Below are positions 10,812 through 58,769 of a DNA stretch of 64,000 bases, one piece after another (position 1 is the stretch's first letter; the number at the start of each line of letters is the position of its first letter). The notes below the pieces were generated by a model. The model searched no databases, was not told the origin of the DNA, and was given only the letters and a program-made list of their open reading frames with translations. The position numbers were made by a program, and so were the translations under genes. The stretch comes from Nitrospira sp. Its GTDB lineage: Bacteria; Nitrospirota; Nitrospiria; Nitrospirales; Nitrospiraceae. The stretch spans positions 122,500 to 186,499 of the forward strand of contig JAXLZJ010000011.1 of NCBI GenBank assembly GCA_046350995.1, written 5' to 3'.

Positions 10812-10838
10812 CGCTCGGTCGTTCGTCTCCGGACCCTG

Positions 10839-10878: not shown

Positions 10879-10953
10879 CCCGCTTCGCAATCATTTCGGA
10901 AATCGTGTAAGGTTTCGATGCGGCGGCAACGGATTTCTGTCGAGGGGGCAGAT

Positions 10954-12108: not shown

Positions 12109-12130
12109 GCTGAAATCTGGGAAAACCTCG

Positions 12131-13261: not shown

Positions 13262-13263
13262 CG

Positions 13264-32658: not shown

Positions 32659-33156
32659 TCATTCAGGGGTGGTCGGGGTGGGGTCGGCTTTAGCGTTGCT
32701 GGCATCGATCGCCTTTCTGGCGAGTTCGGCTTCCGAGCTGTCCGGATACTGATCGACGACACGCTCGTACATCATTCGCGCTTTCTCCTGGTCGCCCAGC
32801 TTGGTATAGGTTTGCCCGATCTTCAATGTGGAAGCGGCTAGTTTCGGGCTTAGTGGGTAGTAGGACACCACATTGTAGAAGGAGGTCAACGCGTCTTTGT
32901 ACCGCCCCATGCGATATTGACACTCTCCGATCCAGTACTGTGCGTTGGCTGCGAGTGACGAGTGCCCATGCACTTCGATGAAGAACCGAAAACCAGCCAG
33001 CGCCGCTTCGTAATCCCGGTGCTTGAATTCCTCCATAATGCGGTCATACAGTCGGCGTGAGCTATCCTGCATTTGACCTGGCGCAGCCGGAGCGATGGTG
33101 GCAGAGGCGAGCAGAGCGCCAAACACGAGGATAGCGATTCTGATGCGGTGCTTCAT
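32659..33156 (-). CDS. CpoB/YbgF-like periplasmic TPR protein
   Basis: Signal peptide; LAANAQYWIGE, YP.SPK, KIG..Y, QYPDSSEA. Confidence 0.8.
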   Translation of the reverse strand: MKHRIRIAILVFGALLASATIAPAAPGQMQDSSRRLYDRIMEEFKHRDYEAALAGFRFFIEVHGHSSLAANAQYWIGECQYRMGRYKDALTSFYNVVSYYPLSPKLAASTLKIGQTYTKLGDQEKARMMYERVVDQYPDSSEAELARKAIDASNAKADPTPTTPE

Positions 33157-33206
33157 AAATTTCCCTCCACACGCGAGAGCGCTTCAAATACTAGAGGGCA
33201 CAGTAA

Positions 33207-33222
33207 CGCAATCGGTATGCCA
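33207..33222 (-). promoter_or_regulatory. sigma54 promoter of cpoB-like gene
   Basis: Minus strand TGGCATACCGATTGCG. Confidence 0.7.
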
Positions 33223-33406
33223 AACCAGGATCTAAAGATGGTGTATAAGCTACTGACAATAATAAGCTTTCATGGGTTCGAACTGGTCGCCACAAGGCCG
33301 AGAAGAAATTCCTCACTCCCTGGAGACAGAATTGTACGGGGACCTTCTTGCCCAGTGTGCTCTTTTTGCTTCGGTCTAGGGCCGATGGTCGGGAGTGTGA
33401 TGTGAA

Positions 33407-33708
33407 ATGAGTGAGCCGACGAACCTCAAATCCTCTAATAGAGAAACATTGATCATCGACTGTAACGATTCCTGGTGTTATCCGCTGCCGAGCGCGGCGC
33501 TTCGCGAAGTCGGGGAGCACGACTAGATCGAGATTCGTCCAGGTGTGTACGAGGAAAAGGTATTCGTTTTCGACCGCCCCATCGGACTCCGGATCTCCCC
33601 AACGTTGTCACGATGAACACGCTTGTGCTGAACCCGCATGGAGCGTATCGGGTTACCGATATGCCATTGCAGAAGTCGGGCGATAGCGTGGAACTGCTCG
33701 ATTCATAG
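33407..33708 (+). pseudogene. Probable remnant of a right-handed beta-helix (NosD/pectate-lyase-like) protein gene
   Basis: ATG 33407 frame reads ...SAALREVGEHD*IEIRPGVYEEKVFVFDRPI with TAG at 33524-33526, stops at 33616; possible continuation in another frame to 33708. Confidence 0.45.
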
Positions 33709-33728
33709 GATCAAAAATTCGGAAGATA

Positions 33729-34655
33729 CTACTGGGAGATCGCAGGGGAGTGAGGAGTTGCCGGTGCCGCGTGGAACTCAAATGCGCTGCCCCCGCGCTG
33801 CTTTGCTCGATACATGGCGAGGTCAGCATGTTTCAACAGATCGTCGATGTCGTGATCATCGGACGGGTAAATCGTGATGCCAATACTGACCCCGATGGAA
33901 GCGCGATGTGAACCAAGGTCAAACGGCTCGGCCAGGGATTCCGTGATACGCTGGGCGACGATCGTGATATCCTGATCTGCCGAGCACCCTTCGAGAATAA
34001 TCGTAAATTCATCCCCTCCCATCCGTGCCACGGTATCGACTTCTCGCACGCACGCTCGGAGTCGGTCTGCGACGGACTTCAGTAGCAGGTCCCCGACATC
34101 ATGCCCCATGGTGTCGTTGACTGCCTTGAATCGATCAAGATCCAGAAGCATCAATCCCAACGGCCGTTGGAGCCGTTTGCTTCGTGCCATGGCTTGGATG
34201 AGACGGTCTCGGAATAATGTCCGATTGACGAGTCCGGTAAGTTGGTCGTACTGAGCGAGGTACGTCATGCGCTCTTCGGCACGCTTTCGTTCGATAGCAT
34301 AGCGAATGGCGCGTGCCAGGAGCTCCGGGTGACCCTGTCCTTTTACCAGATAATCCTGGGCTCCTTGCTGAACGGCTTGAAGGGAGAGTGCCTGGTCGCT
34401 GACTCCGCTCAGAACGATGATAGGGATGGTGGGGCAGGTCGCCTGAACCTGCTTCAACGTGGGAAGGCCATAGGCATCCGGGAGTGACAAATCGAGGAGA
34501 ATGGCGTCGAACCGCTCTCGGGCAAGCCTCGTGAACGCTTCACTCAGCCTGGTCACGTGAGTGACATCGAACTGCTCGATGCTCCACTCGGCCAGGATAT
34601 CCTGGGTGAGGTGGGCATCGACATCGTTGTCCTCCACCAGCAGTAACTTAATCAT
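33729..34655 (-). CDS. Response regulator diguanylate cyclase (REC-GGDEF)
   Basis: LLVEDND, LLDLSLPD receiver; REVD I-site and GGDEF. Confidence 0.95.
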   Translation of the reverse strand: MIKLLLVEDNDVDAHLTQDILAEWSIEQFDVTHVTRLSEAFTRLARERFDAILLDLSLPDAYGLPTLKQVQATCPTIPIIVLSGVSDQALSLQAVQQGAQDYLVKGQGHPELLARAIRYAIERKRAEERMTYLAQYDQLTGLVNRTLFRDRLIQAMARSKRLQRPLGLMLLDLDRFKAVNDTMGHDVGDLLLKSVADRLRACVREVDTVARMGGDEFTIILEGCSADQDITIVAQRITESLAEPFDLGSHRASIGVSIGITIYPSDDHDIDDLLKHADLAMYRAKQRGGSAFEFHAAPATPHSPAISQ

Positions 34656-34848
34656 CGATTTGCGCCATGGCTCCCTAGGGAGAAAGGCACCACACACACT
34701 CGGGACGTGGGACAAGACCGTAACTTGCCTCAAGTATAGCCCAAGGCTATGGATTCACAAGGGAATGTCGGAATCGATGGTGAGGCAATCTGAAGGGAAC
34801 CCGGAGAAGAGAGCGTGAATGCTGCTTCTCCGGGTTATCAATAGTCAG

Positions 34849-35226
34849 CTAAGCTGAATGCAGCGCTTCGGCGCGTCGGCGAACTTCTTCGGCCTTTTGC
34901 GCCTGTCCGAGGTTTTCGTACAACGACGCGATATTGGAATGGAGGTGCGACAATAACTGGCCAAGTTGAGCTTCCTGGGCGATCACATTGGCTTCGAGTG
35001 CCAGCTTCTTTTCTTCACTCCGCCGAAACCGCTCCTCCAATCGCTGGACCAATTGAATCCAACCGCGGACTTTACCGGAGTCGAGTTGAGGTGTAGCAGG
35101 AAGTGGTTCGGCACGATCAAGAGCTTTTTCCGTTTGATTCATCCAGTTGATGAAGACGAGAAAATCACCGAGAGTAATGGTCAGCGCTGATGAAGTCCCT
35201 TCTTCTTCGATAACCAAGTCTTCCAT
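34849..35226 (-). CDS. Hypothetical protein (C-terminal TPR-like helix)
   Basis: AGGAG RBS; coiled-coil segment, LHSNIASLYENLGQ..KAEE. Confidence 0.6.
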   Translation of the reverse strand: MEDLVIEEEGTSSALTITLGDFLVFINWMNQTEKALDRAEPLPATPQLDSGKVRGWIQLVQRLEERFRRSEEKKLALEANVIAQEAQLGQLLSHLHSNIASLYENLGQAQKAEEVRRRAEALHSA

Positions 35227-35615
35227 GCGTGCTCCTTGTTCCTCTAGATCAGATTGATATGCGCACCATTCATTCGGTTTCGCTTCCGGGCAACAATCTG
35301 CATAGTCCTAACCAAACTAAGCTGTTAGCACGTGAGTAGTGTCGTGTTTGGACCTGGTTTGTGTGACATGGGCCAGGGTCCTGGGTCCACCTCCCTTCGA
35401 CGCGCTCGGAGTCCAAAGAAACAGATTTCCGAGATGTGGGCGCTGTGCCGTACGCCCCAATATCCTGTGGAGGTGGGAGTAATACTGCCCTACAAACAGT
35501 ATTGTCAACAGGTAACGCCGGGATTTAGGAAAAATAATTTTCTGGGGAAGGGGAAAGCCCTACGGGGGATTAGAAGCAGTGGATCACGGGCTTGGAGAGG
35601 CGCCATCCGCATGGG

Positions 35616-35945
35616 CTATCCCGGGGAGTAGTCGCGGGGATAGATCCCCCTGGGCCGATCCTCTGGCCCAATGGCAGCCTCACAAGCATACCCACCTTCC
35701 AGCGGCCAAAGGAGGGACAAACCTGCACCCGATCCTTTCACATGGATATACCGGAAGCTGACACCCAATCGCCGGCCTTCTTCACGCATTTGTTGGACGC
35801 AGGATTCCGCGGAATACGCTCTTCGGGTCAGAAGTATGGGATCGCCGGTATGATTGTGAAAGGAATTGTACTCGCTGGCGCAACCGGCGGTGAGCAAGAG
35901 CCCGAGTACGGTTAAGGTCATAGTCACGCGTGCTGGGTAAGCCAT
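35616..35945 (-). CDS. Hypothetical lipoprotein
   Basis: Lipobox LLTAGC; two further Cys. Confidence 0.6.
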   Translation of the reverse strand: MAYPARVTMTLTVLGLLLTAGCASEYNSFHNHTGDPILLTRRAYSAESCVQQMREEGRRLGVSFRYIHVKGSGAGLSLLWPLEGGYACEAAIGPEDRPRGIYPRDYSPG

Positions 35946-36277
35946 GAGCATATCTCCCGGACAATCCTGCAATAGACAAAGCCTATTCGATTAACTTTAT
36001 AACCGTAACACAACGGCAGGTGCTGATCGAGTTCGTAGCGAAGCTGAGGTGCCAGCATTGTAGTGAGAGCGACAAAGTGCGGCTCAGCGACAAAAAATGC
36101 CTGGTAGCCCTCCTCCCACTCCCTACAAAAGTTGGGATTCGTGTGCCCATCTAACTCATTGTGCCACCAATGAATTTCAGTAACGAGCGATGAGTCTTGT
36201 ATGGCATGGAAGCTGCGCATTGAGGCGGCATGCGTTGAACGAACGTTGTTCTGACGTGAATCGGAAGGAGTCTTCAT
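35924..36277 (-). CDS. Hypothetical protein
   Basis: Protein-like C-terminal two thirds (EIHWWHNEL...CRIVREICSWL); start uncertain. Confidence 0.5.
   Translation of the reverse strand: MKTPSDSRQNNVRSTHAASMRSFHAIQDSSLVTEIHWWHNELDGHTNPNFCREWEEGYQAFFVAEPHFVALTTMLAPQLRYELDQHLPLCYGYKVNRIGFVYCRIVREICSWLTQHA
36202..36217 (+). promoter_or_regulatory. Possible sigma54 promoter of lytic transglycosylase gene
   Basis: TGGCATGGAAGCTGCG; lies within an opposite-strand ORF. Confidence 0.4.
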
Positions 36278-36938
36278 GATCCTCACAAAGATCGATAGGC
36301 GGACAAACCTAGAGTACCGGAGCGGACTCAGAGCCGTGGCGATAGCGGTTGGTCTTGTGTCAGTGATTGCTGTGGTACCGGAGAGTAAGGCTGAAGACCA
36401 ACTCTATGGGTACGTCAGTTCCAATGGAACCGTTCACGCGACGAATGTTCCAAGCGATCAACGGTATTCGGAAGTTGCAACACCGCCGCGTGATAGCGCG
36501 GCGGTGTTGGATCATGAGCTGGAAGAAGCCGTTCTCCGATCCGCCCGTGACAATCGGCTGGCACCTGAGCTTCTGCTGGCTGTGATCAAAGCGGAATCCT
36601 CGTTCAACCCGTTAGTCATTTCAAAAGCCGGGGCAGTGGGCTTGATGCAGCTCATTCCCGAAACCGCCATCCGACATGGGGTGCGAAACCTCTACGATAC
36701 TCGGGATAACATCGGAGGAGGAGCGAAGCATCTTCGGTATCTCCTCGACCGATTTCACGGCAATATCCGGCTAGCTCTGGCTGCGTACAATGCCGGCGAA
36801 CAGAAAGTCACACGGTACCGTCAAATTCCCCCGTACAAAGAGACTCAGCTCTATGTGAAGAAAGTGATGACCTACTATCGCGAATATCGGGCCAGTGGAA
36901 CGGCGCATGCCGCGATTCACTATCAAGGCGTCCGATAG
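36276..36938 (+). CDS. Soluble lytic transglycosylase (SLT domain)
   Basis: AVIKAESSFNP..SKAGAVGLMQL, ALAAYNAG, IPPYKETQ.YV. Confidence 0.93.
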   Translation: MILTKIDRRTNLEYRSGLRAVAIAVGLVSVIAVVPESKAEDQLYGYVSSNGTVHATNVPSDQRYSEVATPPRDSAAVLDHELEEAVLRSARDNRLAPELLLAVIKAESSFNPLVISKAGAVGLMQLIPETAIRHGVRNLYDTRDNIGGGAKHLRYLLDRFHGNIRLALAAYNAGEQKVTRYRQIPPYKETQLYVKKVMTYYREYRASGTAHAAIHYQGVR

Positions 36939-37001
36939 GGAATAGCTGTACGTGCTAATCGGTGAATGGAATGTGAGAAGGTGGAGGCGGGAAACAAAGT
37001 C

Positions 37002-37274
37002 TCACAGGGGCTTTTCCGCAACGTACTCGATGTACTTCCAGAACTGCTTCGCTTCGTCTTCGTTCAGCACCACCGGAGTGTTGTTCGCCATGCCGGACAT
37101 GTAGACCTTTACCGACACCGTATCGTGCCAAACCTGCACCTCGCAGTGCGTAACGCGGTCGAGATTGATGGCACGGTTGCCGATTCTGACGAAATGCACC
37201 AGGGTGCTCCTGTCTGTCTCTGGAACGTTCCCTGATCGTATCGCAGCATGAACAATCGACAAAGCATGTTGCAA
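37002..37274 (-). CDS. Hypothetical protein
   Basis: FVRIGNRAINLDRV small beta-rich pattern; start uncertain. Confidence 0.55.
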   Translation of the reverse strand: MQHALSIVHAAIRSGNVPETDRSTLVHFVRIGNRAINLDRVTHCEVQVWHDTVSVKVYMSGMANNTPVVLNEDEAKQFWKYIEYVAEKPL

Positions 37275-37375
37275 ATCTCTGACGAGATCGGTCGACGACC
37301 AGATGCGTCAGCAACGGCAATCATGTCACTTGGAAGAGGTGGCTGAATTTAGTGGGAAAGAAAAAGCAACCGGGT

Positions 37376-37452
<77 letters not shown>

Positions 37453-48351: not shown

Positions 48352-48591
48352 GCAGGCACCAAGCGAAGAAGAGGGCCGGATTATTGCCCAGGGCCAGTTT
48401 GAAGTCAATTGGATATTTCATGATTCATGAAGAGGAATGATGAAAACAGATTGGAATACGATTGATAAGTGATTGTTGAAGAGGCACGGCTGTCGACGAG
48501 AAAATGATGCGCGGCGGCAATCAATTATTTCTCTGTTGGAAGTTGGGATGGCGATTCACAGCAAGGCTGATTCGTCTACTAAGAGCATGGC

Positions 48592-48656
48592 TTGACAGAA
48601 AGCCTGGCCGGAAGGTATACGATGCACGATTAATTCCTACCGGAATAATCAAGAAT
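48592..48656 (+). promoter_or_regulatory. Putative promoter/operator of sulfur operon
   Basis: TTGACA 48592-48597, weak -10 TATACG; ATTCC-N4-GGAAT palindrome 48633-48646. Confidence 0.4.
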
Positions 48657-49104
48657 GAAGGTTTCTCACAGAGCCATCTATGGAATCATGGCGGCAGTAG
48701 ATCTCGCCATGCATGGCAAGGAGGCACCCGTTCAAGCGCGTGCGATTGCCAGACGGCAAGGCATTCCCGTGCGATTCCTTGAACAGGTGCTCCATACGAT
48801 GCGGAAAGCCGGACTGGTCGAAAGCGTTAGGGGAGCGCAAGGCGGATATTTATTGTTGCAGGCGCCTTCGGACCTTTCTGTGGCTGAAGTACTCGAGGTG
48901 CTCGAAGGACCGATCTTTCATGGCGAACCCCAAAATGGACACGGGATTGGCCGCCGCGAAAGCAAAGAACAGCTGCTCCTCGGTACGGTCTGGACGAAGG
49001 TTCAGCAGGCGGAACAGGCCGTCTTAGGTGCCGTCACGATCGATCAATTGGTGGAACGGCAACGAGCGATCGATCAGCAGCAGAATCCGATGTATCACAT
49101 CTAG
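48655..49104 (+). CDS. Rrf2-family regulator, Cys-less (CymR-like)
   Basis: RRQGIP..FLEQ, SVRGAQGGY; no cysteines; C-terminal MYHI. Confidence 0.9.
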   Translation: MKVSHRAIYGIMAAVDLAMHGKEAPVQARAIARRQGIPVRFLEQVLHTMRKAGLVESVRGAQGGYLLLQAPSDLSVAEVLEVLEGPIFHGEPQNGHGIGRRESKEQLLLGTVWTKVQQAEQAVLGAVTIDQLVERQRAIDQQQNPMYHI

Positions 49105-49141
49105 GCAGCACGAGCATGACCCTTTACCGGGAGTCGATATC

Positions 49142-51628
49142 ATGAGCCCACAGGATCAACTCATAGTTCCCGAGATCAAAACCGCGCCCATTCCTCCGGC
49201 GATCGCGGAAGAAATCGAAACCTTCGAGACCGAGGCGTTACGGACGCTCGCGGGGGACGTATCAACCGATTTGTTCAAGCCGTTTCGGCTGCAGTACGGC
49301 ATTTATGGTCAGCGCCAGCCCGGCGTGCAGATGGTACGGGTCAAGATCCCCTTCGGTGGTCTGACCGGAAATCAGCTGCGTCGCGTCGCCGAACTCGCCA
49401 ATCGATATGCGACCGGCGTAGGGCACGTCACGACGCGGCAAGACATCCAGATGCATTTCGTTGAATTGAAAGATGTTCCGACCATTATGCGCGGGCTTGC
49501 TGAAGTGGGGCTGACGACACGGGAAGCGTGCGCCAATACGGTCCGTAACGTGACGGCTTGCCATCTCGCCGGGGTCTGCTCGGGCGAGGTATTCGATGTG
49601 ACGCCCTATGCGAAGACCATTGCGTATCATCTGCTCCGCAATCCGTTGAATCAGAGTCTGCCGCGGAAATTTAAGATCGCGCTTTCCGGCTGCAAGCAGG
49701 ATTGCGCCCTTACGCCGATTCACGATGTCGGACTCCTGGCCGCCAAACGAGCGGATGGGGCGGTCGGATTTCGCATGGTTGCGGGGGGCGGACTTGGGTC
49801 GCTCCCACGGATGGCCCAGGTGCTCCGTGAGTTCTGCCCAATGGACGAGCTGCTGCCGAGCGTCGAAGCGGTTATCAAGGTATTCGACACGCTCGGCAAT
49901 CGGAAGAACCGCAACAAAGCGCGTATGAAATTCGTGATCGAGAAGCTCGGCTTCGAGGAATTCAAGCGGCGCTGGGAAATCGCGTACGAATCGATGGGGT
50001 ACAAAAAGCCGTCGCATGAGCCCATCAGGCTCATGGCCCACGCCGATGAACCGACGCCGCTGATCATGCCGACACGCAATGGGGCGGGGCATGACTCATC
50101 GAACAGGAGTAGCTCCAGCCATCGCAACGGGATCGGACAGGAAACGCCGTTTCAGATGTGGAAACGGACGAACGTCGTGAAACAGAAACAGCCCGGCTAC
50201 GTGACGGCGGCGATCAAGTTGTTCATGGGCGATCTCACGTCCGAACAAATGCTCTCGGTCGCAGATTTGTCCGAGCGGTATGCGAATGGAAATATCCGGA
50301 CGACCATCAACCAGAACATGGTGATTCGCTGGGTGCCGGAGACCCAGATTGCTTCGCTCTACGAAGATCTGGTCGGCATCGGTCTGGCCGATCCTGGGGC
50401 CGAACTCGTCGAAGACATCATCGCCTGTCCTGGCACAGATACGTGCGGCTTGGGCATCACGTCGTCCAAGGGGCTGGCTCGGGCCTTGGCGGAAGTGTTT
50501 CCGGCCGGTCGGGTTCCCGAGGACCTTTCCGATGTGAGCGTCAAAATCAGCGGCTGCCACAATTCCTGCGCGCAGCATCACATTTCCACGATCGGTCTTC
50601 ACGGCGTGGGTAAACGGATCGGGGAACACGTCGCGCCGCACTACGAGTTGCATTTGGGCGGTCAGGTCGACGGGACGCCTAAGATCGGCCAGATGACGGT
50701 CAAGTTGCCGGCCAAAGCCGTTCCTGCCGCACTGTCTCATTTGGTCGATGTCTACCGGCGCGACCGGCAGCCGAACGAAAATCTGGCCGGGTTCGTTCAC
50801 CGCGTGGGGAAAAACAAACTCAAAGACGAACTGATTCCCTATACGATCGTACCGGCGTTTGAAGACGATGCCACCTTCTACTATGACTGGGAAGGAGAAG
50901 AGGAATTCATCCTCGAAGATTTGGGCCCGGGCGAATGCGCCGGCGGCGCGCTGGAAATGATCGAGAACGGCATTCTCGAGGCCGATCAGGAACTGTATCA
51001 GGCCAAACTCCTGGTGGAGAAGCATCAATACTCCGTCTCGGTGAACAAGTCCTATCGCGCCGTATTGGCGGCGGCGAAAGCATTGCTTGTCACTGAAGGA
51101 CTCGAGCCCTCCACCGATGCCGAGACCTTCGCGGAATTTGAAACCCGCATTGCGAGCAAAGGCGTGATCCCCGTTGCCTACCGTGAGTTGGCGAAGAAGG
51201 TCGGCGATTTGGGGCCAAAGGATACGACGGCGCAATCCGCTCTCGAGAAGATGAATTTTGCCAAGGGCTTTGTCGATGCCTGCCGGTCGGCCACCGACCA
51301 GATGGGCAAAGACCTCAAACTGGCGGCCGTCCAGGAAGAGAAACCCGCCGCGGCGCCCGCGCCGGCGAAGCCGTCCGCTCCGGTCCCGACCGGCGCGCCG
51401 GTCTACGATCTGCGCGGCGTGGCGTGCCCGCTGAACTATGTGAAGACCAAACTGAAGCTGGAAATGATGGACGCCGGGGACAAACTTGAAGTCTGGCTCG
51501 ACGCCGGCGAGCCGATCAAGAATGTGCCGATGAGTCTCAAGAACGACGGCCACCTGATCCATCTTCAGGAGGCCTTGGAGCCGGAAGCGGCGCACTATCG
51601 GATCCTGGTTGAAAAGGTCGAAGGATAG
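49142..51628 (+). CDS. sir: Ferredoxin-type sulfite reductase fused to HEPN-like and TusA-like domains (828 aa)
   Basis: YGIYGQRQ, HVTTRQDIQ, LPRKFK, CPGTDTC / SGCHNSC; C-terminal DLRGVACPLNYVKTK. Confidence 0.9.
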   Translation: MSPQDQLIVPEIKTAPIPPAIAEEIETFETEALRTLAGDVSTDLFKPFRLQYGIYGQRQPGVQMVRVKIPFGGLTGNQLRRVAELANRYATGVGHVTTRQDIQMHFVELKDVPTIMRGLAEVGLTTREACANTVRNVTACHLAGVCSGEVFDVTPYAKTIAYHLLRNPLNQSLPRKFKIALSGCKQDCALTPIHDVGLLAAKRADGAVGFRMVAGGGLGSLPRMAQVLREFCPMDELLPSVEAVIKVFDTLGNRKNRNKARMKFVIEKLGFEEFKRRWEIAYESMGYKKPSHEPIRLMAHADEPTPLIMPTRNGAGHDSSNRSSSSHRNGIGQETPFQMWKRTNVVKQKQPGYVTAAIKLFMGDLTSEQMLSVADLSERYANGNIRTTINQNMVIRWVPETQIASLYEDLVGIGLADPGAELVEDIIACPGTDTCGLGITSSKGLARALAEVFPAGRVPEDLSDVSVKISGCHNSCAQHHISTIGLHGVGKRIGEHVAPHYELHLGGQVDGTPKIGQMTVKLPAKAVPAALSHLVDVYRRDRQPNENLAGFVHRVGKNKLKDELIPYTIVPAFEDDATFYYDWEGEEEFILEDLGPGECAGGALEMIENGILEADQELYQAKLLVEKHQYSVSVNKSYRAVLAAAKALLVTEGLEPSTDAETFAEFETRIASKGVIPVAYRELAKKVGDLGPKDTTAQSALEKMNFAKGFVDACRSATDQMGKDLKLAAVQEEKPAAAPAPAKPSAPVPTGAPVYDLRGVACPLNYVKTKLKLEMMDAGDKLEVWLDAGEPIKNVPMSLKNDGHLIHLQEALEPEAAHYRILVEKVEG

Positions 51629-51643
51629 GAGCTCTTGGGTACC

Positions 51644-52360
51644 ATGTCCATCATCGGCAGTCCGGAATTAACAGGGGAGCTGAAGCGCCTGAGCGACTCG
51701 TTCGAGTCTCAGCAGCCGCAAGACGTCTTGGCCGAAGCGATCAAGCGGTTCGCGCCGAAGATGGTCGTCGCGTGTAGCTTCGGCGCCGAAGATGTCGTGC
51801 TCGTCGATATGGTTCATCGGATTGATCCGTCGATTCCGCTGTTCTATTTGGACACCGAGTTCTTGTTTCCCGAAACCTACGCGACGCGGGATCGCATCGT
51901 GCAGCATTACGAGTTGAAGCCGACGCAGGTTATTCAGGTGAAGCCGCTGCTGACTCCGGATCAACAGGCCGCTCAGTACGGGCCGGCGCTCTGGTCGACC
52001 GAACCGGATCGCTGTTGCCAGCTGCGGAAGGTGGAGCCTCTCACGCGGGCTCTCAAGGGATACGATGCCTGGATTACTGGGATCCGCCGCGATCAGGCTC
52101 CGACCAGGGCGAACGCGGGGCTCTTCGAGTGGGATGGCAAGTTCCAATTGGTAAAGGTGAATCCACTCGCCCGCTGGACCTGGGGCGACGTGTGGACGTA
52201 TATCAAGGTCTACGAAGTGCCCTACAATCCACTGCACGATCAGAACTACCCCAGCATCGGCTGCACACACTGCACCGCGCCTGTCGCTCCGGGTGACGAT
52301 CCGCGTGCCGGCCGCTGGAAAAATTTCACCAAAACCGAATGCGGACTCCATAAGCCGTAA
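51644..52360 (+). CDS. cysH: APS/PAPS reductase (Fe-S APS-reductase type)
   Basis: SFGAED, LDT..LFPETY, CC..RKVEPL, SIGCTHCT, RAGRW, ECGLH. Confidence 0.95.
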   Translation: MSIIGSPELTGELKRLSDSFESQQPQDVLAEAIKRFAPKMVVACSFGAEDVVLVDMVHRIDPSIPLFYLDTEFLFPETYATRDRIVQHYELKPTQVIQVKPLLTPDQQAAQYGPALWSTEPDRCCQLRKVEPLTRALKGYDAWITGIRRDQAPTRANAGLFEWDGKFQLVKVNPLARWTWGDVWTYIKVYEVPYNPLHDQNYPSIGCTHCTAPVAPGDDPRAGRWKNFTKTECGLHKP

Positions 52361-52362
52361 CC

Positions 52363-53409
52363 ATGCCGATCCAAGACTATCTCGCGAAAATCGCACAGGG
52401 CCCCAAAGCCTCCAAGGATCTCACCTGGGACGAGTCGAAGCAGGTGATGAAGTTGCTGATCGAAGGCGGCGCCACCCAAGCGCAGCTCGGCGCCTTCTTG
52501 ATCGCCATGCGGTTCAAGAGCGAGTCCGTCACCGAACTGGCGGCGTTTACGGCGGCGGCCCGCCACTACGTTGCGCCGCTGGCGATTCCCAAGGAGCTGG
52601 CATTGGTGGATGTGCCGACGTACGCGGGAAAGCAGGACACGTTTCATGCGCTCATTGCCGCGTCCTTCATCGCTTCGGCGGCCGGTGCCTCGATCGTCAT
52701 GCACGGTTACGACGGCATTCCCAGTCGTCCCGGTGCGGCCGGCGTGTTGAAAGCGCTGGGGATTCCCATCGATCTCGATCCGAAGGCGGCCGCGGACACG
52801 ATCGCGAAGAAGGGGTTCGCGTACCTGGACATCGGCTTGTACCATCCGCCGATCTATCGGTTTTTGGAAATGCGGCAGGAGTTGGGCGTTCGGAACGTGT
52901 TCCATCCAATCGCGAGGCTCCTCAATCCCGGTCGCGCGTCGGTACAGGTGGTGGGGTTGTCCCATCCGCCGCATTTCGAAAAGACGGCCGAAGCCTTGCG
53001 CATGCTGGGCGTGCCGCGCGCGCTGGTGATCCGGGGAGTGGAAGGCGATCCGGAATTGTCGATCGGGGCTGCGACGCGGGTACTGGAATTGCGCGATGAA
53101 CGGATCACGCCGTTGGGCATGGGGCCGAAGGATTTCGGTCTTGCGATGGGGTCCCCCCGCGACATGGCTGGTTTTCCGCCGGAACAGCGGGAGCGAGAAG
53201 CAGAGTTGCTGCGACGGCTCATTCAGAATCAGGTGGCGGGCGGGCAGAAAGACTGGGTGCTGATGAATGCGGCGATGCTGCTGTATGCGGCGGGGAAAGG
53301 GACGACGGCAGCGGGCTGTCTGCCGCTGGCCCGCGTGGCGCTCGAAGGCGGGGCGGCGGCGCGCAAGCTCGACGAGCTAGCCCAGTCGTCGCCGGTCGCC
53401 AGTCGATGA
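52363..53409 (+). CDS. TrpD-like (YbiB/TrpD2) glycosyltransferase family 3 protein
   Basis: [21 protein letters not shown]...RLLNP; lacks GTGGD and KHGN of true TrpD. Confidence 0.82.
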
Positions 53410-53441
53410 TCGTCAGGGTTAAACGGAAAGGGTTACCGGTC

Positions 53442-54239
53442 GTGAAACACTTACGTCAACTGGAAGATCAAAGCGTCTATATTCTGCGCGAGGCCTATAA
53501 GCATTTCGACAATCTCGCCATGCTCTGGTCCATGGGCAAGGATTCGACCGTCTTATTATGGCTGGCCCGCAAGGCGTTCTTCGGCCATGTGCCGTTTCCG
53601 CTGTTGCACGTAGATACCAGCTACAAGATTCCGGCGATGATCGAATACCGCGATCGGCTGGCCCGCGAGTGGCGGTTGGATCTGGTGGTGGGTCAGAACA
53701 AAGAGGCGCTGGCTGCCGGGATGAATCATACGATGGGCCGGGTGGCCTGTTGTACCGCACTCAAGACCAACGGGCTCAAGCAGCTTATCGAACAGAAGGG
53801 TTACACCGGCATCATTCTCGGCGTGCGGGCCGACGAAGAAGGCACGCGCGCCAAGGAGCGGTATTTCTCGCCCCGCGACAAGCACGGCGACTGGGACTTT
53901 CGGGATCAGCCGCCGGAACTCTGGGATCAATACAAGACGACTTTCCCGCCGGGAACGCACATTCGTATCCATCCCTTGCTGGACTGGACCGAGATCAACA
54001 TCTGGGAATACATCAAGTACGAAAACATTCCCTTCATCGATCTCTACCTCGATAAGGGCGACGGCATGCGCTATCGCAGTCTCGGCTGTGCGCCCTGTAC
54101 GACGCCGATCAAGTCGACGGCCAAGACCGTGGACGACATCATCGAAGAACTGCGCCACACGACGGTGGCCGAACGGTCCGGCCGTGCGCAGGACGAAGGC
54201 CGGGGCATGGAATTACTTCGCAAAGATGGATACATGTAA
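53442..54239 (+). CDS. cysD: Sulfate adenylyltransferase subunit 2
   Basis: [40 protein letters not shown]. Confidence 0.95.
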
Positions 54240-54241
54240 TC

Positions 54242-56086
54242 ATGAGCAACACGACCACCAAGCCGTCTGAAAATCTCAACATTGTCATTGTCGGCCATGT
54301 CGATCACGGTAAGTCCACCCTCTTGGGCCGGCTCTATGCCGACACCGGGTCGCTTCCGGACGGCAAGTTGGAAAAAGTCCAGGCCATCTGTCGACAGCAG
54401 GGTAAAGAGTTCGAATATGCGTTCCTCTTCGACGCGTTTCTGGAGGAACAAGAGCAGGGCATTACGATCGATACCGCCCGGACCTTCTTCATCTGGAAAG
54501 GGCGTCAGTACATCATCATCGACGCGCCCGGCCACAAAGAATTTCTCAAGAACATGATTTCCGGCGCCGCGCGGGCGGAAGCGGCGCTGCTCTTGATCGA
54601 CGCGTTGGAAGGCGTGAAGGAACAATCCAAGAAGCACGGGTATCTCCTCTCGCTGCTGGGCGTCCGGCAGTTTGCCGTCGTCGTCAACAAGATGGATCTG
54701 GTCGGCTACCGGCAGGACGTCTTCGACGGCATCGAGAAGGAATACCGGGAGTTTCTGGGCCAGTTCAAGGCCGTGCCCGAACGCATCATTCCGGTGAGTG
54801 CGAAACTAGGCGACAACATCGCCAATCGCAGCGACAAGATGCCCTGGTATACCGGCCCTACGGTGTTGGATACCCTCAGCCTGTTCAAGAAAGAAGCCGC
54901 ACGGTCCGAACAGCCGCTACGGTTTCCGGTACAGGATGTCTACAAGTTCGACGCCCGCCGGATCATCGCTGGCCGTATCGCCGCCGGCAAGTTGAAGGTC
55001 GGCGATCAGCTCGTCTTCTCGCCGTCCAACAAGCGGGCCAACATCCGGACCGTCGAAGCATTCAATGTCGATCCGCAGCCGATTGAAGCGCAAGCTGGCC
55101 AATCGGTCGGGGTGACGCTGGACGAGCAGATTTTCGTGGAGCGGGGCGAAGTCGCCACTCTTCCGGACCATCTCCCGTCGGTGTCGACCGCTTTCCGTGC
55201 GAATCTGTTCTGGCTCGGCAAACGGCCGTTGGAGCGGGGTCGGAAATATATCCTCCGGGTGGCCACCAAAGAAGTCGATTGTGAGATCGCGACGATCCAC
55301 CGCATCATCGACACGATGGATCTGGCGCAACAACAGGGGAGCACGACGGTCGGCAAGAACCAAGTGGCGGAACTGACCTTGCGGACCAAGTCGCCCATTG
55401 CGTTTGATTTGTCCGCGTCATTCGAGGCGACCGGACGGTTTGTGCTGGTGGACGAATACGACATCGCCGGCGGCGGCATTGTCACCGAGTTGATCCACGA
55501 CGATCAGGAGTTTCTACGCGAGGAGGCCCGACGTCGGGATTTTGCCTGGGTTAAAGGCGAGGTCGGCGTCGAAGATCGGGCGCGGCAGTATGGGCATCGC
55601 GCCGCGATTGTGCTTTTTACCGGAGGCCGACATACGGGCAAATCGTTTCTGGCCAGAAAGCTGGAAGGGCGTCTCGTCGCAGACGGTCGGCACGCGTATT
55701 TGCTCGATGGGGAAAATCTTCGCCGGGGGCTTGATGCGGACCTCACGGACGAAGAACGTGGGCAAACCGACGAAATGGCCAGGCGCTATGGCGAAGTCGC
55801 CCGGCTCTTGATCGATACGGGACTGATCGTAGTTTCCACCACCAATCCTTTCGGCCTGGCCTATGTGGACGCCGCGCAGGCCATCAGGACGCTCGTGCAT
55901 CCGGCGCCGGTGATTGCCGTCCATATGAGCAAGAGCAACGAAGAGCCGCCGCCGAATACCGACATTGTGCTGGTGGGGCCAACTGATTTTGACGCGGCGA
56001 CGCACCGGATTATGGAAGAGCTTAAGAAGCGAGGAGTTCTGGCCCAAGCCATCGGTGCGAAGCCGACGTTTCAGTATTCCATCTAA
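54242..56086 (+). CDS. cysN: Sulfate adenylyltransferase subunit 1 with degenerate APS-kinase C-domain
   Basis: GHVDHGKST, EQGITID, DAPGH, NKMD; C-domain FTGGRHTGKS, LDGENLRRGL. Confidence 0.93.
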   Translation: MSNTTTKPSENLNIVIVGHVDHGKSTLLGRLYADTGSLPDGKLEKVQAICRQQGKEFEYAFLFDAFLEEQEQGITIDTARTFFIWKGRQYIIIDAPGHKEFLKNMISGAARAEAALLLIDALEGVKEQSKKHGYLLSLLGVRQFAVVVNKMDLVGYRQDVFDGIEKEYREFLGQFKAVPERIIPVSAKLGDNIANRSDKMPWYTGPTVLDTLSLFKKEAARSEQPLRFPVQDVYKFDARRIIAGRIAAGKLKVGDQLVFSPSNKRANIRTVEAFNVDPQPIEAQAGQSVGVTLDEQIFVERGEVATLPDHLPSVSTAFRANLFWLGKRPLERGRKYILRVATKEVDCEIATIHRIIDTMDLAQQQGSTTVGKNQVAELTLRTKSPIAFDLSASFEATGRFVLVDEYDIAGGGIVTELIHDDQEFLREEARRRDFAWVKGEVGVEDRARQYGHRAAIVLFTGGRHTGKSFLARKLEGRLVADGRHAYLLDGENLRRGLDADLTDEERGQTDEMARRYGEVARLLIDTGLIVVSTTNPFGLAYVDAAQAIRTLVHPAPVIAVHMSKSNEEPPPNTDIVLVGPTDFDAATHRIMEELKKRGVLAQAIGAKPTFQYSI

Positions 56087-56106
56087 GGTCGACCTGACAT
56101 CAAGCC

Positions 56107-56132
56107 GGGGGGCACATTTGCTGTGACCCCCC
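56107..56132 (+). terminator. Possible terminator after cysNC
   Basis: GGGGGGCAC-loop-GTGACCCCCC followed by pyrimidine run. Confidence 0.5.
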
Positions 56133-56145
56133 TCTTCTGCTTGGT

Positions 56146-56175
56146 TTGACTCCCCAGAAACCGCTGTGTTACCGT
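56146..56175 (+). promoter_or_regulatory. sigma70-type promoter of mrp unit
   Basis: TTGACT-N18-(TGT)TACCGT. Confidence 0.6.
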
Positions 56176-56213
56176 ACCGCTCTACGGCTCCAGAGCCTGT
56201 GGATAAGGACACT

Positions 56214-57134
56214 ATGGCATCGGAAAAAGACCTCAAGAGCATCCTCGGCAAGCTGAAATATTCGGACGATGCGAAGGTCGTTCAGCAAATTACGGAACAG
56301 ACCAAGCAGGTCCATGCCCGCATGGCGGGGATCAAGCATAAGTTGGTCGTGATGAGCGGTAAGGGCGGCGTCGGCAAGAGCATGACGACCGTAAATCTGG
56401 CGCTCGCGTTCGCTCGGCAAGGGAATAAAGTTGGGTTGCTCGATGTCGATCTCAACGGTCCCTGCGTCCCTCGGATGCTGGGGCTTCACGGGAAATCGCT
56501 CACGATCACGCCCGAAGGGGCCATTCCGCCGGTCGGCCCGCTTGGGATGAAGGTCGCGTCGATGGATTTTTTCCTCGACGATGCCTCGCCGGTCCGCTGG
56601 AAAGGGCCGATGGACGTCAGCCCTGTGTGGCTTGGGCTGATGGAAATGAATGTGATCCGGGAGTTCTTGTCCGACGTCGTGTGGGGCGAGTTGGATTATT
56701 TGCTGGCCGATCTGCCTCCCGGTGCCGCCGCGGACAAGCCGCCGGTGATCGCGGGATTCATCCCGGATTTAGCCGGCGCGATCGTTGTGACCACGCCGTC
56801 CGAAGTCGCGTCCGATGTCGTACAGAAGTCGGTCACCTACGCGCGCGACATGGGGATTCGTGTGTTGGGCATCGTCGAAAACATGAGCGAATATCGGTGC
56901 CCGTCCTGCGGGGAGCAGAACGAATTGTTCGAGGGGAATACCGAAGCTATGTGTGAAGTGTTGGATCTGCCATTGCTCGGGCGGATTCCCTTCGACCGCA
57001 AGCTGGCCCGCACGTTCGATAAAGGCGAGCCGTTGTTGGATGACACCTATCCGACGATTCAGCGGTATCAGGAAATTGCCGGTCGTATCCGCACCTTGCT
57101 CGAGTACAAGAAGGTTTTGGCGGAGAAGCTGTGA
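56214..57134 (+). CDS. mrp: Mrp/NBP35 (ApbC) Fe-S cluster carrier ATPase
   Basis: SGKGGVGKS, D.DL.GP, WGELDYL..DLPPG, G.VENMS, CPSC. Confidence 0.92.
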   Translation: MASEKDLKSILGKLKYSDDAKVVQQITEQTKQVHARMAGIKHKLVVMSGKGGVGKSMTTVNLALAFARQGNKVGLLDVDLNGPCVPRMLGLHGKSLTITPEGAIPPVGPLGMKVASMDFFLDDASPVRWKGPMDVSPVWLGLMEMNVIREFLSDVVWGELDYLLADLPPGAAADKPPVIAGFIPDLAGAIVVTTPSEVASDVVQKSVTYARDMGIRVLGIVENMSEYRCPSCGEQNELFEGNTEAMCEVLDLPLLGRIPFDRKLARTFDKGEPLLDDTYPTIQRYQEIAGRIRTLLEYKKVLAEKL

Positions 57135-57159
57135 TCAGAGGGATGGGAGAGGAGTCACT

Positions 57160-57912
57160 ATGAAATTCGTTTGCCTCAACTGCGAAACCTATATGAATTT
57201 CGAGAAGGTCGAGAAACCCGGTGAAGGGTCGCTCGGGGTCTTTTTCGGCTGCCAATCATGCGGCGCGAAGTTCTCCATGGTGACCAATCCCGGCGAAACC
57301 CAGATGGTCAGCTCCCTCGGCGTCAAGCTGGGTGGACGGAGCGCCGCGGCGGAGCCGTTCGAAATGACCCGCAATACATTGAAGGACGAAGCCCTCGCCG
57401 GCGCGGGGCAGATGGGTGCCTATCTGAACGAAAAGATCCAAGGTGGTCAGCCCGTGGCTGCGGCGTCCGCGTCTCCCACGAACGCAGGCGAAAAGGCCAG
57501 CGGCGGCTGTCCCTTTTCCGCGATGGTCGCTGAAATGGGCCTGACGACAGGCGGGAAGCCGGGCAATGGCACCGCGCCTTCGTCGGACTTCACTTGGACT
57601 GCCGACGCGAAGGACAAACTCGATCGGCTGCCGGCATTCGTCAAGCCGATGGTGCAGAGCAGCGTCGAAGCTTACGCTCGGAAGAATGGGTTCAAGACCA
57701 TCACCTTACAGGTCATGGACGATTCTAAGAACGATTCACCCAACGGCATGACCTGGTCGCGCGAAGCCGAACAACGGCTGGACAACATTCCCGATTTCAT
57801 CCGCCCCATGGCGCGGAAGGAAATCGAACGTTTGGCGAAAGAGCGCGGTGTCGCCACGATTACTGCGCAGGTCATGGACGACGCCAAAGACAAGTTCATG
57901 AAATTCATGTGA
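57160..57912 (+). CDS. Zn-ribbon protein with two PCP_red (protochlorophyllide reductase B C-terminal-like) domains
   Basis: GAGGAG RBS; CLNC...CQSC; two repeats W(T/S).(D/E)A...LD..P.F..PM....E..A...G...IT.QVMDD. Confidence 0.8.
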   Translation: MKFVCLNCETYMNFEKVEKPGEGSLGVFFGCQSCGAKFSMVTNPGETQMVSSLGVKLGGRSAAAEPFEMTRNTLKDEALAGAGQMGAYLNEKIQGGQPVAAASASPTNAGEKASGGCPFSAMVAEMGLTTGGKPGNGTAPSSDFTWTADAKDKLDRLPAFVKPMVQSSVEAYARKNGFKTITLQVMDDSKNDSPNGMTWSREAEQRLDNIPDFIRPMARKEIERLAKERGVATITAQVMDDAKDKFMKFM

Positions 57913-58769
57913 GCATGGGCAGCATGTCGAAGGGCTTGCAAAGGCCCATCCGGACAACCGGATGGGCCTTTCCTTTACCAATACACTGGCCGTCGGGCTC
58001 CGGCCTCGCTGGCATAGGCTTTTCTGTTGTGTGGGTCGTCCTCACGATCATCTGCCTTGATTTTGCTGGTCATCCATCATTCGCCCAGCATCACGATTCC
58101 GAACAGCATGCAGTGCCGATGTCGGTGGACGATCATGGGCATGGCCATCACGGCCAGTCGGATTCCACCGGCTGGGAAGGGTCGAAGGAAGGGGTGGCCT
58201 ATTCGGAATTCAACCATCACCTCGCGGGACTGTTCGTTCTCCTAATCGGATTGTCAGAATTGGCCCAGGCGTTGCGGTCGGCTTCTATCGGATGGGCGCG
58301 GATGCTTTTGCCGGCGGCGCTGTTGGGGACAGCCGGATTTCTTCTCATTTGGAGTGACCACGAGGCTTGGCCGATCGGACCCATGACGTTTTCAGACACC
58401 TTCTTCGGTTCGGACCATGAGATTGTCCAACACAAGCTCTACGGTCTTCTGGCATTGCTGGTCGGGACGATCGAGATTCTCCGTCGTCTTGAATGTCTGT
58501 CCCATGTTGCCTGGATGATTCCGCTGCCGCTTTTTGCCATGCTCGGCGGGGCGATGTTGTTCGGTCATTCTCACGGGGCCCATCCGTCGGCTGAGAAGAT
58601 CGCTCTGCATCACGCGGTGATGGGGACGCTCGCCCTGTCCGCCGGTTCCAGCCGACTGGTGTCGGGGTGGACTCCGTCGTTTCTGGGCCTCTCCCGTCTC
58701 AGGTGGGAAATGATCTGGGCCGGACTTATCTTCCTCATCGGAATCCAGCTGCTGTTTTATTCCGAGTAG
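57909..58769 (+). CDS. His-rich polytopic membrane protein
   Basis: ATGA overlap; periplasmic HHD...HGHGHH; TM-associated His (NHHLAG, QHKLYG, HSH, LHHAVMG). Confidence 0.7.
   Translation: MSMGSMSKGLQRPIRTTGWAFPLPIHWPSGSGLAGIGFSVVWVVLTIICLDFAGHPSFAQHHDSEQHAVPMSVDDHGHGHHGQSDSTGWEGSKEGVAYSEFNHHLAGLFVLLIGLSELAQALRSASIGWARMLLPAALLGTAGFLLIWSDHEAWPIGPMTFSDTFFGSDHEIVQHKLYGLLALLVGTIEILRRLECLSHVAWMIPLPLFAMLGGAMLFGHSHGAHPSAEKIALHHAVMGTLALSAGSSRLVSGWTPSFLGLSRLRWEMIWAGLIFLIGIQLLFYSE

Follow-up and report, generated by a model that had tools for sequence, protein, structure and literature searches.

A sulfate-reduction operon with an extended sulfite reductase

The window analysed here is a stretch of 64,000 nucleotides (nt) from a Nitrospira sp. 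assembly (contig JAXLZJ010000011.1), and the element in question is a group of six genes on its + strand, at 48655-56086, which run in the order rrf2, sir, cysH, a gene for a TrpD-like protein, cysD and cysNC and are separated by spacers of 37, 6, 2, -4 and 2 nt, respectively. Together they form the assimilatory sulfate-reduction operon of Nitrospira, and the second of them (sir; 49142-51628) encodes a sulfite reductase (Sir) of 828 amino acids (aa) in which two NIR_SIR_ferr/NIR_SIR pairs are continued by a HEPN-like domain and a TusA-type domain. This Sir-HEPN-TusA fusion, which is real, conserved and present in hundreds of species-level genomes, is the main subject of what follows. The preliminary description of this DNA had singled out the same tightly packed unit, with sir carrying HEPN and TusA domains and with a ybiB-like gene in fourth place, and had noted that it lacks cysK, cysG, cysJ and a sulfate transporter. 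The packing is confirmed by the coordinates, the spacers and Pfam, the fusion of both domains to Sir by Pfam together with fold matches of an AlphaFold2 model, and the missing genes by scans of the open reading frames (ORFs). Indeed, none of these four genes lies within the six-gene unit, the scanned ORFs of the 64 kb yielded no cysE, cysK, cysG, cysJ, sulfate permease, thiS, thiF, JAB gene or metY, and Pfam and tblastn pointed to no further sulfur-assimilation gene among the scanned ORFs of the window.

The first in-frame start of sir, a GTG at 49028, was rejected in favour of the ATG at 49142, which has a GGGAG Shine-Dalgarno sequence ahead of it and yields an 828-aa product that corresponds to a database protein (P0001) and agrees in length with its orthologues (825-836 aa). 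All close homologues of this product come from Nitrospira, and the window is a piece of the chromosome of such a bacterium. When a one-genome-per-species collection was searched with the C-terminal module of Sir, 277 stretches matched, and the best 80 of these, all of Nitrospira lineage, served as the Nitrospira census. In all 80 loci the six genes keep the same order, and thrS-hup-fis precede rrf2, as far as the contigs extend. A relative with 69% identity, recovered from other metagenomes, carries the same six-gene block between wholly different flanks; because the block thus recurs between different flanking genes, it represents a unit rather than mere inherited synteny. The DNA of the window itself was encountered in wastewater and activated-sludge metagenome DNA runs only.

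Domain architecture and conserved residues of the Sir fusion

An AlphaFold2 model of the fusion was built from an alignment of 61 sequences (28-95% identity) and searched with Foldseek against the PDB. Its mean predicted local distance difference test score (pLDDT) is 85.6 and its predicted template modelling score (pTM) 0.72, with disorder at an insert between the two repeats (residues 309-330) and in the linker at residues 733-745, where pLDDT drops below 50. The Sir core (residues 1-570; 49142-50851) is, according to Pfam, fold and ligands, a NirA-type siroheme-[4Fe-4S] sulfite reductase with the tandem repeats of the NirA/Sir family. Its best structural match is Mycobacterium tuberculosis NirA (1zj8; template modelling score against the target, TMt, 0.79); 5h92, 1aop and the plant nitrite and sulfite reductases share the fold as well, whereas dissimilatory sulfite reductase is distant (TMt <0.5). 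The four siroheme-[4Fe-4S] ligands, C429, C435, C472 and C476 (CX5C...CX3C), are invariant in the 61 sequences. The core is presumably ferredoxin-dependent. Hidden Markov models for the NirA family, nitrite reductases and CysI all score under their cut-offs and do not discriminate between substrates, yet the cysH/cysDN context and the similarity to M. tuberculosis NirA suggest that the substrate would be sulfite and not nitrite.

The core is followed by a bridge segment (residues 571-600; 50852-50941) recognised by its conserved motif YxDW...FSL...GxGEC and modelled with low confidence (pLDDT 57-61), then by a non-catalytic, HEPN-like four-helix domain (601-720; 50942-51301), an Ala/Pro-rich flexible linker with low pLDDT and variable sequence (721-752; 51302-51397) and, finally, the TusA-type domain (753-828; 51398-51628). 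Pfam recognises HEPN weakly (25 bits, cut-off 22), as does a PDB profile match, but the fold of residues 601-720, a four-helix up-and-down bundle, superimposes on the HEPN protein AF0298 (2hsb) with a TMt of 0.78 and a root-mean-square deviation (rmsd) of 2.2 over 122 columns. No Rx4-6H nuclease motif (R.{4,6}H) occurs in residues 601-720, and no Arg or His is conserved there in a diverse alignment of the C-terminal part (A1), which argues that the HEPN-like domain is a scaffold and not an RNase. The last 76 residues are more readily classified: they score 52 bits against Pfam TusA (cut-off 28.6) and adopt the two-layer alpha/beta fold of the TusA/SirA family, matching E. coli TusA (3lvj_C; TMt 0.82, rmsd 1.9, 77 columns) and 3hz7 (TMt 0.81). 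In sequence, the closest solved proteins are TM0983, YedF and YeeD/TsuB (8k1r), E. coli TusA being a weaker match (E 0.04). The domain is marked by a CPLN motif and the signature GEPIxNVPxS.

Outside the core ligands, the extension carries two invariant cysteines in the 61-sequence alignment: C599, in the GxGEC loop just before the helical domain (codon 50936-50938), and C762, in the CPxN motif at the start of the TusA helix (codon 51425-51427). D582, P763, N765, D787, G789, V795, S798 and G803 are likewise invariant, the Cys762-Pro763 pair standing in a CPxN setting where the family motif is CPxP; F589 and E598 of the bridge are nearly invariant, and the GEC motif was seen in every extended Sir inspected. 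Within Nitrospira, column identity is highest in the TusA domain (0.95), intermediate in the catalytic core (0.89) and lowest in the linker (0.66), which across phyla differs in both length and sequence. A well-conserved TusA domain on a poorly conserved linker is what a mobile carrier domain on a tether would be expected to show, and conservation of this degree marks the TusA domain as a functional, selected part of the enzyme. As a name for the protein, 'sulfite reductase with TusA domain' is appropriate, and 'TusA family protein' and 'HEPN domain protein' are not.

Distribution of the fusion

How far does this architecture extend beyond Nitrospira? A search of 1.84 billion representatives at 50% identity with the 254-residue C-terminal module retrieved 1011 clusters, 346 of them at E<=1e-10, and the strong ones are mostly proteins of 735-830 aa in which the match is C-terminal. 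The pattern [LV]DDGEPIxN, taken from a 7-sequence alignment of distant members (A2), found 385 further stretches, the best 80 of which span at least 15 phyla; the distant census covered 78 non-Nitrospira loci. Represented are Thermodesulfobacteriota/Deltaproteobacteria, Nitrospinota, Poribacteria, Elusimicrobiota, Omnitrophota, Planctomycetota, Verrucomicrobiota/Lentisphaerae, Spirochaetota, Bacteroidota, Armatimonadota, Dictyoglomaceae, Margulis- and Saganbacteria, Clostridia and others, to which Campylobacterota and SAR324 were added from loci found by a carrier motif (see below). A profile search of a 5.8-billion-protein set with alignment A1 gave 31 matches, mostly fragments. The spread over at least 15 phyla indicates that the fusion is an old and broad subfamily of Sir and not an invention of Nitrospira.

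One contig labelled 'uncultured Nitrosospira sp.' (L027) shows the Nitrospira-type arrangement thrS-hup-fis-rrf2-sir-cysH-TrpD-like and a C-terminal module 84% identical to the query; it probably belongs to Nitrospira and was mislabelled or mis-binned.

Gene neighbourhoods outside Nitrospira

In the 78 non-Nitrospira loci, tblastn located thiF near the fusion in 50, a JAB gene in 44, thiS in 43, metY in 35 and a PALP gene in 30, as compared with cysH in 27, rrf2 in 19, cysD in 18 and cysN in 16; Mrp was found once and the TrpD-like gene never. The genes for a ThiS-like carrier, MetY, a ThiF-type E1 without a rhodanese domain and JAB usually lie directly 5' of the fusion. A representative locus (L130) encodes, according to Pfam, Rrf2, a PALP enzyme of the CysK/CysM type, a 70-aa ThiS-like protein ending in ...FMGGGAY, MetY, a 268-aa ThiF without rhodanese, a JAB protease and the Sir fusion, followed by cysH, cysD and cysN, and Campylobacteraceae have overlapping genes for ThiS (69 aa), ThiF (268-272 aa), JAB (131-137 aa) and the Sir fusion (763-766 aa). 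Nearly all ThiS-like carriers at the fusion loci end in FLYFMGGG plus 0-10 extra residues, and GG termini capped in this way would need a JAB protease. The E1 ORFs are mostly 265-300 aa long, which is too short to include a rhodanese domain.

The same linkage emerges in the opposite direction. Among 118 loci chosen solely by the HcyS-like carrier motif FLYFMGGG from the matches listed (at least 120), ThiF was found in 105, JAB in 91 and a TusA with the signature of the fusion, CPx[TN][FY]VK...GEPxxNVPRS, within 8 kb in 68, and the TrpD-like gene again in none. TusA proteins of this signature either stand alone beside thiS, in which case the motif reads CPxT, or are fused to Sir, in which case it reads CPxN, and the stand-alone form also occurs in carrier clusters without any Sir and in clusters that have neither cysH nor sir. 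Its presence in Sir-less carrier clusters ties the subfamily to the carrier reaction and not to regulation of Sir. These arrangements suggest that evolution has repeatedly joined this TusA subfamily, or the carrier itself, to Sir, and that the subfamily works together with the carrier/E1 pair.

Two genomes (L240 and L254) may hold natural splits of the fusion: their Sir ORF reaches 167 residues beyond the core and ends behind the HEPN-like domain, with a CPxN-type TusA match next in the locus, and a second TusA match, of the CPxT type, is present in each. In L130, Pfam also identifies an AAA_15/AAA_21 ATPase (359 aa) and a DUF3226 protein (209 aa) between sir and cysH (10708-12401), and a similar-sized ORF pair (397 and 180 aa), read by eye, lies between cysH and cysD in L149 (10329-12057). 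This two-gene cassette of two unrelated genomes looks mobile and is possibly defence-related.

Sulfate activation and regulation in the Nitrospira operon

The product of cysH (51635-52360, with ATG 51644 as a start that may be used instead) scores 282 bits against PRK02090 (cut-off 154), matches PAPS_reduct, and falls at the edge of the cut-off of TIGR02055, the model for adenosine 5'-phosphosulfate (APS) reductases (233.9 versus 235.3). Its translation carries CCQLRK, SIGCTHCT and ECGLH, that is, the CC...CxxC cluster motif and the C-terminal ECGLH of Fe-S APS reductases, motifs by which CysH is classed as a thioredoxin-dependent sulfonucleotide reductase of the Fe-S APS-reductase type. CysD, the small subunit of sulfate adenylyltransferase (53406-54239), reaches 366 bits against NF003587 (cut-off 195) and also matches PAPS_reduct. 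CysN (54242-56086) combines a GTPase part (residues ~1-425; TIGR02034, 350 bits, cut-off 336; GTP_EFTU) with an APS-kinase-like tail (residues ~431-614). This tail is not a complete, competent APS-kinase domain: the APS_kinase match covers model positions 2-107 of 152, the scores are far under the cut-offs of the apsK models (TIGR00455, 58 versus 138.7; NF004035, 458 versus 715) and the P-loop Gly varies among 62 Nitrospira orthologues. The tail is thus a truncated, probably non-catalytic APS-kinase-like domain, either a relic or a regulatory domain; annotations ought not to list it as an APS kinase, and the automatic label 'bifunctional CysNC' is probably wrong for the kinase half. With an APS-reductase-type CysH and a degenerate kinase tail, the operon would have no step via 3'-phosphoadenosine 5'-phosphosulfate (PAPS), and the predicted route would lead from sulfate to APS (CysD and CysN), then to sulfite (CysH) and to sulfide (Sir).

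The first gene, rrf2 (48655-49104), encodes a CymR-like regulator of the Rrf2 family (Pfam Rrf2, 111 bits) whose best named NCBIfam match is CymR, at 103 bits and under the cut-off of 195. The protein contains no Cys. Its gene lies upstream of sir in 72 of the 80 Nitrospira loci (19/78 in the distant loci), and this Cys-less protein is probably a repressor of the operon. An 11-nt inverted repeat, TTTCATGATTC / GAATGATGAAA, with its arms 8 nt apart (48416-48445), is a candidate operator in the divergent intergenic region between a fis-like HTH_8 gene and rrf2.

The TrpD-like gene

The fourth gene (52363-53409) starts 2 nt after cysH and overlaps the start of cysD by 4 nt, and is translationally coupled to both. 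Its product has the glycosyltransferase-family-3 fold (Pfam Glycos_trans_3N and Glycos_transf_3), the two-domain architecture shared by TrpD and YbiB/TrpD2. It is ~30% identical to solved TrpDs (E 1e-45), whereas YbiB aligns over residues 6-230 only (E 3e-20), and it scores narrowly above the cut-off of the TrpD model TIGR01245 (207.8 versus 199.05) and below that of the YbiB model NF006005 (147.8 versus 185). Aligned to 4hkm, however, the TrpD motifs GTGGD, KHGN and SxSGSAD are replaced by PTYAGK, MHGY and SRPGAAG, and in 72 Nitrospira orthologues these replacements are invariant, together with KDLTW, YLDIxxYHPP, HPxARLLNP and GVEGxPELS. An anthranilate phosphoribosyltransferase was rejected because the motifs for phosphoribosyl pyrophosphate (PRPP) and anthranilate are replaced, and this name should be avoided even though annotation pipelines may apply it. 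TrpD2 proteins lack the PRPP-binding TrpD motifs as well, but a DNA-binding TrpD2/YbiB protein was likewise rejected, given the low model score, the partial alignment and the cysH/cysD context: YbiB is found in a LexA/helicase context (PMC5445326), whereas the TrpD-like gene sits in a cys operon and its product has a motif set of its own. Cluster look-ups with this protein and with the PCP_red protein described below gave no named match.

The gene is present in 74 of the 74 Nitrospira loci that reach its position, as well as in the lineage of one further relative (P0122), and is absent from all 78 + 118 (~196) non-Nitrospira loci. It is therefore an addition of the Nitrospira lineage that stands outside the general Sir-TusA system.

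The downstream boundary and the mrp unit

Downstream of cysNC, a GC-rich hairpin with a pyrimidine-rich tail, GGGGGGCACA...UGUGACCCCCC (56105-56133, + strand), is a probable terminator of the cys operon. Spotted by eye and folded separately, it has a minimum free energy of -25.9 kcal/mol and a z-score of -2.87, and 1 of 200 shuffles was as stable; scans for consensus promoters and terminators performed at chance level, and the simple scan did not report it. The hairpin lies within the 79-nt spacer that separates cysNC from mrp, the first gene of a unit at 56166-58769. This unit encodes an Fe-S carrier ATPase of the Mrp/ApbC type, a protein of 250 aa that is rich in Cys in its N-terminal segment and has two PCP_red repeats, and a membrane protein that includes a His-rich stretch and whose gene overlaps that of the PCP_red protein by 4 nt. 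PCP_red is the C-terminal domain of subunit B of protochlorophyllide reductase, here found in a non-phototroph. Among the 58 Nitrospira loci with enough downstream sequence, mrp directly follows cysNC in 19 and lies 2.5-3.6 kb downstream in 5 more, and each of these 24 loci has a PCP_red gene within ~1 kb after mrp. The varying adjacency to cysNC, the constant pairing with PCP_red and the intervening hairpin all place Mrp in a separate mrp-PCP_red-membrane protein unit.

Relation to known systems

Was this system undescribed, as the preliminary description had it? The neighbourhood was in fact described by Iyer, Burroughs and Aravind in 2006 (PMC1779556), who list, in row 4e of their Table 1, SirA and sulfite reductase together with ThiS, E1 and JAB, and, in the same neighbourhood, PAPS reductase, ATP sulfurylase and O-acetylhomoserine (OAH) sulfhydrylase. 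According to the sections of that paper concerned with these operons, their E1 always lacks a rhodanese domain and SirA (CCD1) is always present and was predicted to substitute for it, assimilated sulfur may end up on the ThiS-like protein, and some actinobacteria fuse ThiS to the C-terminus of sulfite reductase. Moreover, the Nitrospira protein already bears the annotation 'putative sulfite reductase, contains SirA-like domain (modular protein)'. The window shares with the neighbourhoods set out in those sections of PMC1779556 the sulfite reductase, the PAPS/APS reductase, the ATP sulfurylase with its kinase domain and the same TusA subfamily; it differs from them in that neither the operon nor the 64 kb contains a ThiS-like carrier, E1, JAB or OAH sulfhydrylase, and in that a TrpD-like gene is inserted. 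The same sections list SirA as a component and make no mention of its fusion to Sir, of the HEPN-like spacer or of the second invariant cysteine. A full-text literature search, too, found no paper on a covalent Sir-HEPN-TusA fusion, its second invariant Cys or its function.

Two related pathways have been demonstrated biochemically, as recounted in the parts of PMC5764234, PMC6225789 and PMC8191291 that bear on them: the methionine route of Wolinella succinogenes via HcyS, HcyF, HcyD, MetY and Sir, which was reconstituted in 2011, and the cysteine route of M. tuberculosis via CysO, CysM, Mec and MoeZ. The Sir of Campylobacteraceae (763-766 aa) belongs to the same fusion family as the Nitrospira protein, but Nitrospira lacks the carrier set in cis; the literature search found no test of the role of the C-terminal module of Sir in the W. 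succinogenes pathway. A sulfur relay in the fusion is thus a reasonable idea but not a new one, as it matches a system that had been predicted by 2006, parts of which were characterised in 2011.

The NirA (SirA)-CysH operon of M. tuberculosis resembles that of the window in the adjacency of sir and cysH and in its APS-type CysH, and the concept of a thiocarboxylate carrier as a sulfide equivalent is common to M. tuberculosis and to the relay proposed for Nitrospira. M. tuberculosis NirA, though, has no C-terminal module; in M. tuberculosis the part of persulfide carrier falls to the MoeZ rhodanese domain, and the operon has a siroheme ferrochelatase gene in third place and not one for a TrpD-like protein. 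E. coli TusA, which acts in the IscS-TusA-TusBCDE relay and is linked to the molybdenum cofactor, has the same fold and the same Cys-Pro pair at the start of helix 1, but its motif is CPxP and it is served by a cysteine desulfurase, whereas the fused domain has CPLN and is joined to a reductase. A further parallel is offered by DsrC and DsrAB, where a siroheme sulfite reductase likewise works with a protein arm whose two cysteines could pick up sulfur at the active site; the carrier fold of DsrC is nonetheless unrelated to TusA, and the fusion differs in its covalent link and its assimilatory context.

A proposed two-cysteine relay and its alternatives

What, then, might the C-terminal module do? 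We favour, on balance but by no means firmly, a role as a tethered, swinging-arm sulfur carrier. A relay is made plausible, and a ThiS-family carrier its likely acceptor, by the association of this TusA subfamily with ThiS, E1, JAB and MetY across phyla. The arm would pick up nascent sulfide at the reductase and transfer it to a ThiS-family carrier, activated as its acyl-adenylate on a rhodanese-less, ThiF-type E1, and the resulting protein thiocarboxylate could be used by MetY or CysM-type enzymes to make homocysteine or cysteine. Forming a persulfide from a thiolate and sulfide requires an oxidant, and the extension has exactly two invariant cysteines, both of which would fit a redox-neutral cycle. 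In such a cycle, a Cys599-Cys762 disulfide would react with HS- to give a Cys762 persulfide, the persulfide would attack carrier-CO-AMP to form an acyl disulfide, and resolution of this intermediate by Cys599 would set carrier-COSH free and restore the starting disulfide. Similar acyl-disulfide chemistry is known for ThiF/ThiS and ThiI.

Several observations weigh against this proposal. In the 80 Nitrospira loci, tblastn found no thiS, thiF, JAB, metY or PALP gene within 10 kb of sir, and the 64-kb window holds no thiS, thiF, JAB, metY or PALP/Cys_Met_Meta_PP gene either; with no carrier genes near sir, an acceptor may not exist in the organism of the window. Of the parts of an HcyS/CysO-type cluster, the window has the TusA subfamily and lacks both the carrier, E1 and JAB and a thiocarboxylate-using MetY or CysM. 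Several other lineages carry the fusion as an orphan (one relative being a true orphan) or, as in one relative, in a plain cysH-sir-sat cluster. The second Pro of the canonical CPxP motif is an invariant Asn in the fusion, and Thr in the stand-alone relatives of the carrier clusters. No RNA-seq run containing the locus, and no expression data, were found. Finally, Krishnamoorthy and Begley are said to have described the W. succinogenes pathway in 2011 as drawing its sulfur from bisulfide made by Sir, and free sulfide reportedly thiocarboxylated the carrier acyl-adenylates in vitro in their hands with no TusA present. The DNA pattern for FLYFMGGG gave no Nitrospira record among the matches listed (at least 120), which is not evidence of absence. 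Perhaps the acceptor of Nitrospira is encoded elsewhere, or is a different one, or the module serves Sir itself; in Nitrospira it is very strongly conserved, which speaks against decay.

These points lend some credit to a simpler explanation, which we consider a less probable but serious contender, namely that the operon performs ordinary sulfate assimilation, with Sir freeing sulfide for an unlinked CysK/CysM or MetY, and that the module never carries sulfur but docks or stabilises ferredoxin, CysH or E1, or regulates the enzyme by redox through a Cys599-Cys762 disulfide. Sulfate can be taken all the way to sulfide without the module, carrier genes are not nearby in Nitrospira and several other lineages, and free bisulfide reportedly suffices for HcyS thiocarboxylation in vitro. 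A passive appendage is harder to reconcile with two cysteines and a TusA signature that are invariant over at least 15 phyla, with a TusA domain that in Nitrospira surpasses the catalytic core in conservation, and with stand-alone members of the same subfamily in carrier clusters devoid of Sir. Could the two cysteines instead make the module a thioredoxin-like partner of CysH that attacks the S-sulfocysteine intermediate of this enzyme, frees sulfite right beside the siroheme and so channels this toxic intermediate? APS reductases act via an enzyme thiosulfonate that requires a dithiol partner, and cysH adjoins sir in Nitrospira and is nearby in 27 of the 78 distant loci; the linkage to thiS/thiF/JAB (50/78) is stronger, however, TusA has no thioredoxin fold, and the same subfamily occurs in carrier clusters that have neither cysH nor sir, all of which makes this role improbable.

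Even less can be said for a YeeD-like function, in which the TusA domain would split bound thiosulfate and pass the sulfite half to the reductase, so that the enzyme would assimilate thiosulfate. The domain is nearer in sequence to TM0983, YedF and YeeD/TsuB than to E. coli TusA, and in one Nitrospinota locus the fusion lies close to genes for a SoxY-like protein and a YeeE/YedE-type transporter, but this is the single YeeE-like gene in ~280 loci searched, for which reason the idea was rejected, and the Nitrospira operon encodes a complete route of sulfate activation instead. The locus concerned, in a Nitrospinota metagenome-assembled genome (L093), is an orphan fusion with an FNR-like NAD-binding oxidoreductase upstream (6898-7707) and a SoxY/desulfoferrodoxin-like protein and the YeeE/YedE-type sulfur transporter downstream (12730-14701). 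We attach just as little probability to the scheme of the preliminary description, a new, self-contained system in which a TusA persulfide would pass, via the YbiB-like protein as partner, to the Mrp Fe-S carrier of the adjacent unit as recipient. It is true that the TrpD-like gene is universal and translationally coupled in the Nitrospira-lineage operon and that mrp follows cysNC in the window after 79 nt. Yet the supposed YbiB-like protein is closer to TrpD and missing from every non-Nitrospira fusion locus, and mrp, which follows directly in 19/58 Nitrospira loci, occurs in 1/78 elsewhere and always goes with PCP_red, is set off by the terminator-like hairpin. What survives of that scheme is the relay built into the reductase, upheld by the conservation of the TusA domain and its cross-phylum linkage to carrier genes; when the neighbourhoods are surveyed for extra genes that vary freely among relatives, the YbiB-like and Mrp genes prove to do so, and the TusA part does not.

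A bolder version of the swinging-arm reading, which we regard as rather unlikely, would hold that Sir never frees sulfide at all but, owing to the Cys599/Cys762 arm, passes its sulfur on as a protein persulfide, that in nitrite oxidisers (Nitrospira and the Nitrospinota with orphan fusions) the module has been uncoupled from an HcyS-type carrier and serves several acceptors, for example MoaD, in keeping with the very high molybdenum-cofactor demand of nitrite oxidoreductase, and that the TrpD-like protein is a new partner in APS reduction, whether catalytic or nucleotide-handling.

Were the tethered-carrier reading correct, sulfate sulfur would enter metabolism as a protein persulfide or thiocarboxylate, without a free pool of toxic, oxygen-sensitive sulfide, and would do so in hundreds of species that belong to at least 15 phyla, among them the principal nitrite oxidisers of soils and wastewater plants. 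Reconstruction of sulfur assimilation from genomes would then change, since thiocarboxylate pathways are, according to the part of PMC5764234 that deals with them, poorly represented in pathway databases. Beyond what was predicted before, the present analysis adds a concrete and testable two-cysteine mechanism, the definition of Sir-bridge(GEC)-HEPN-linker-TusA(CPxN) proteins as a large and experimentally untouched subfamily with two invariant cysteines, and a Nitrospira-lineage variant that has no carrier genes in cis and has acquired a TrpD-like gene.

Other features of the window

Elsewhere in the window, the region at ~33000-37400 has a G+C content of 0.54-0.55, compared with ~0.60, and holds small ORFs of low GC3 without Pfam matches. 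It adjoins genes for a response-regulator diguanylate cyclase and an SLT transglycosylase, and may be acquired DNA.

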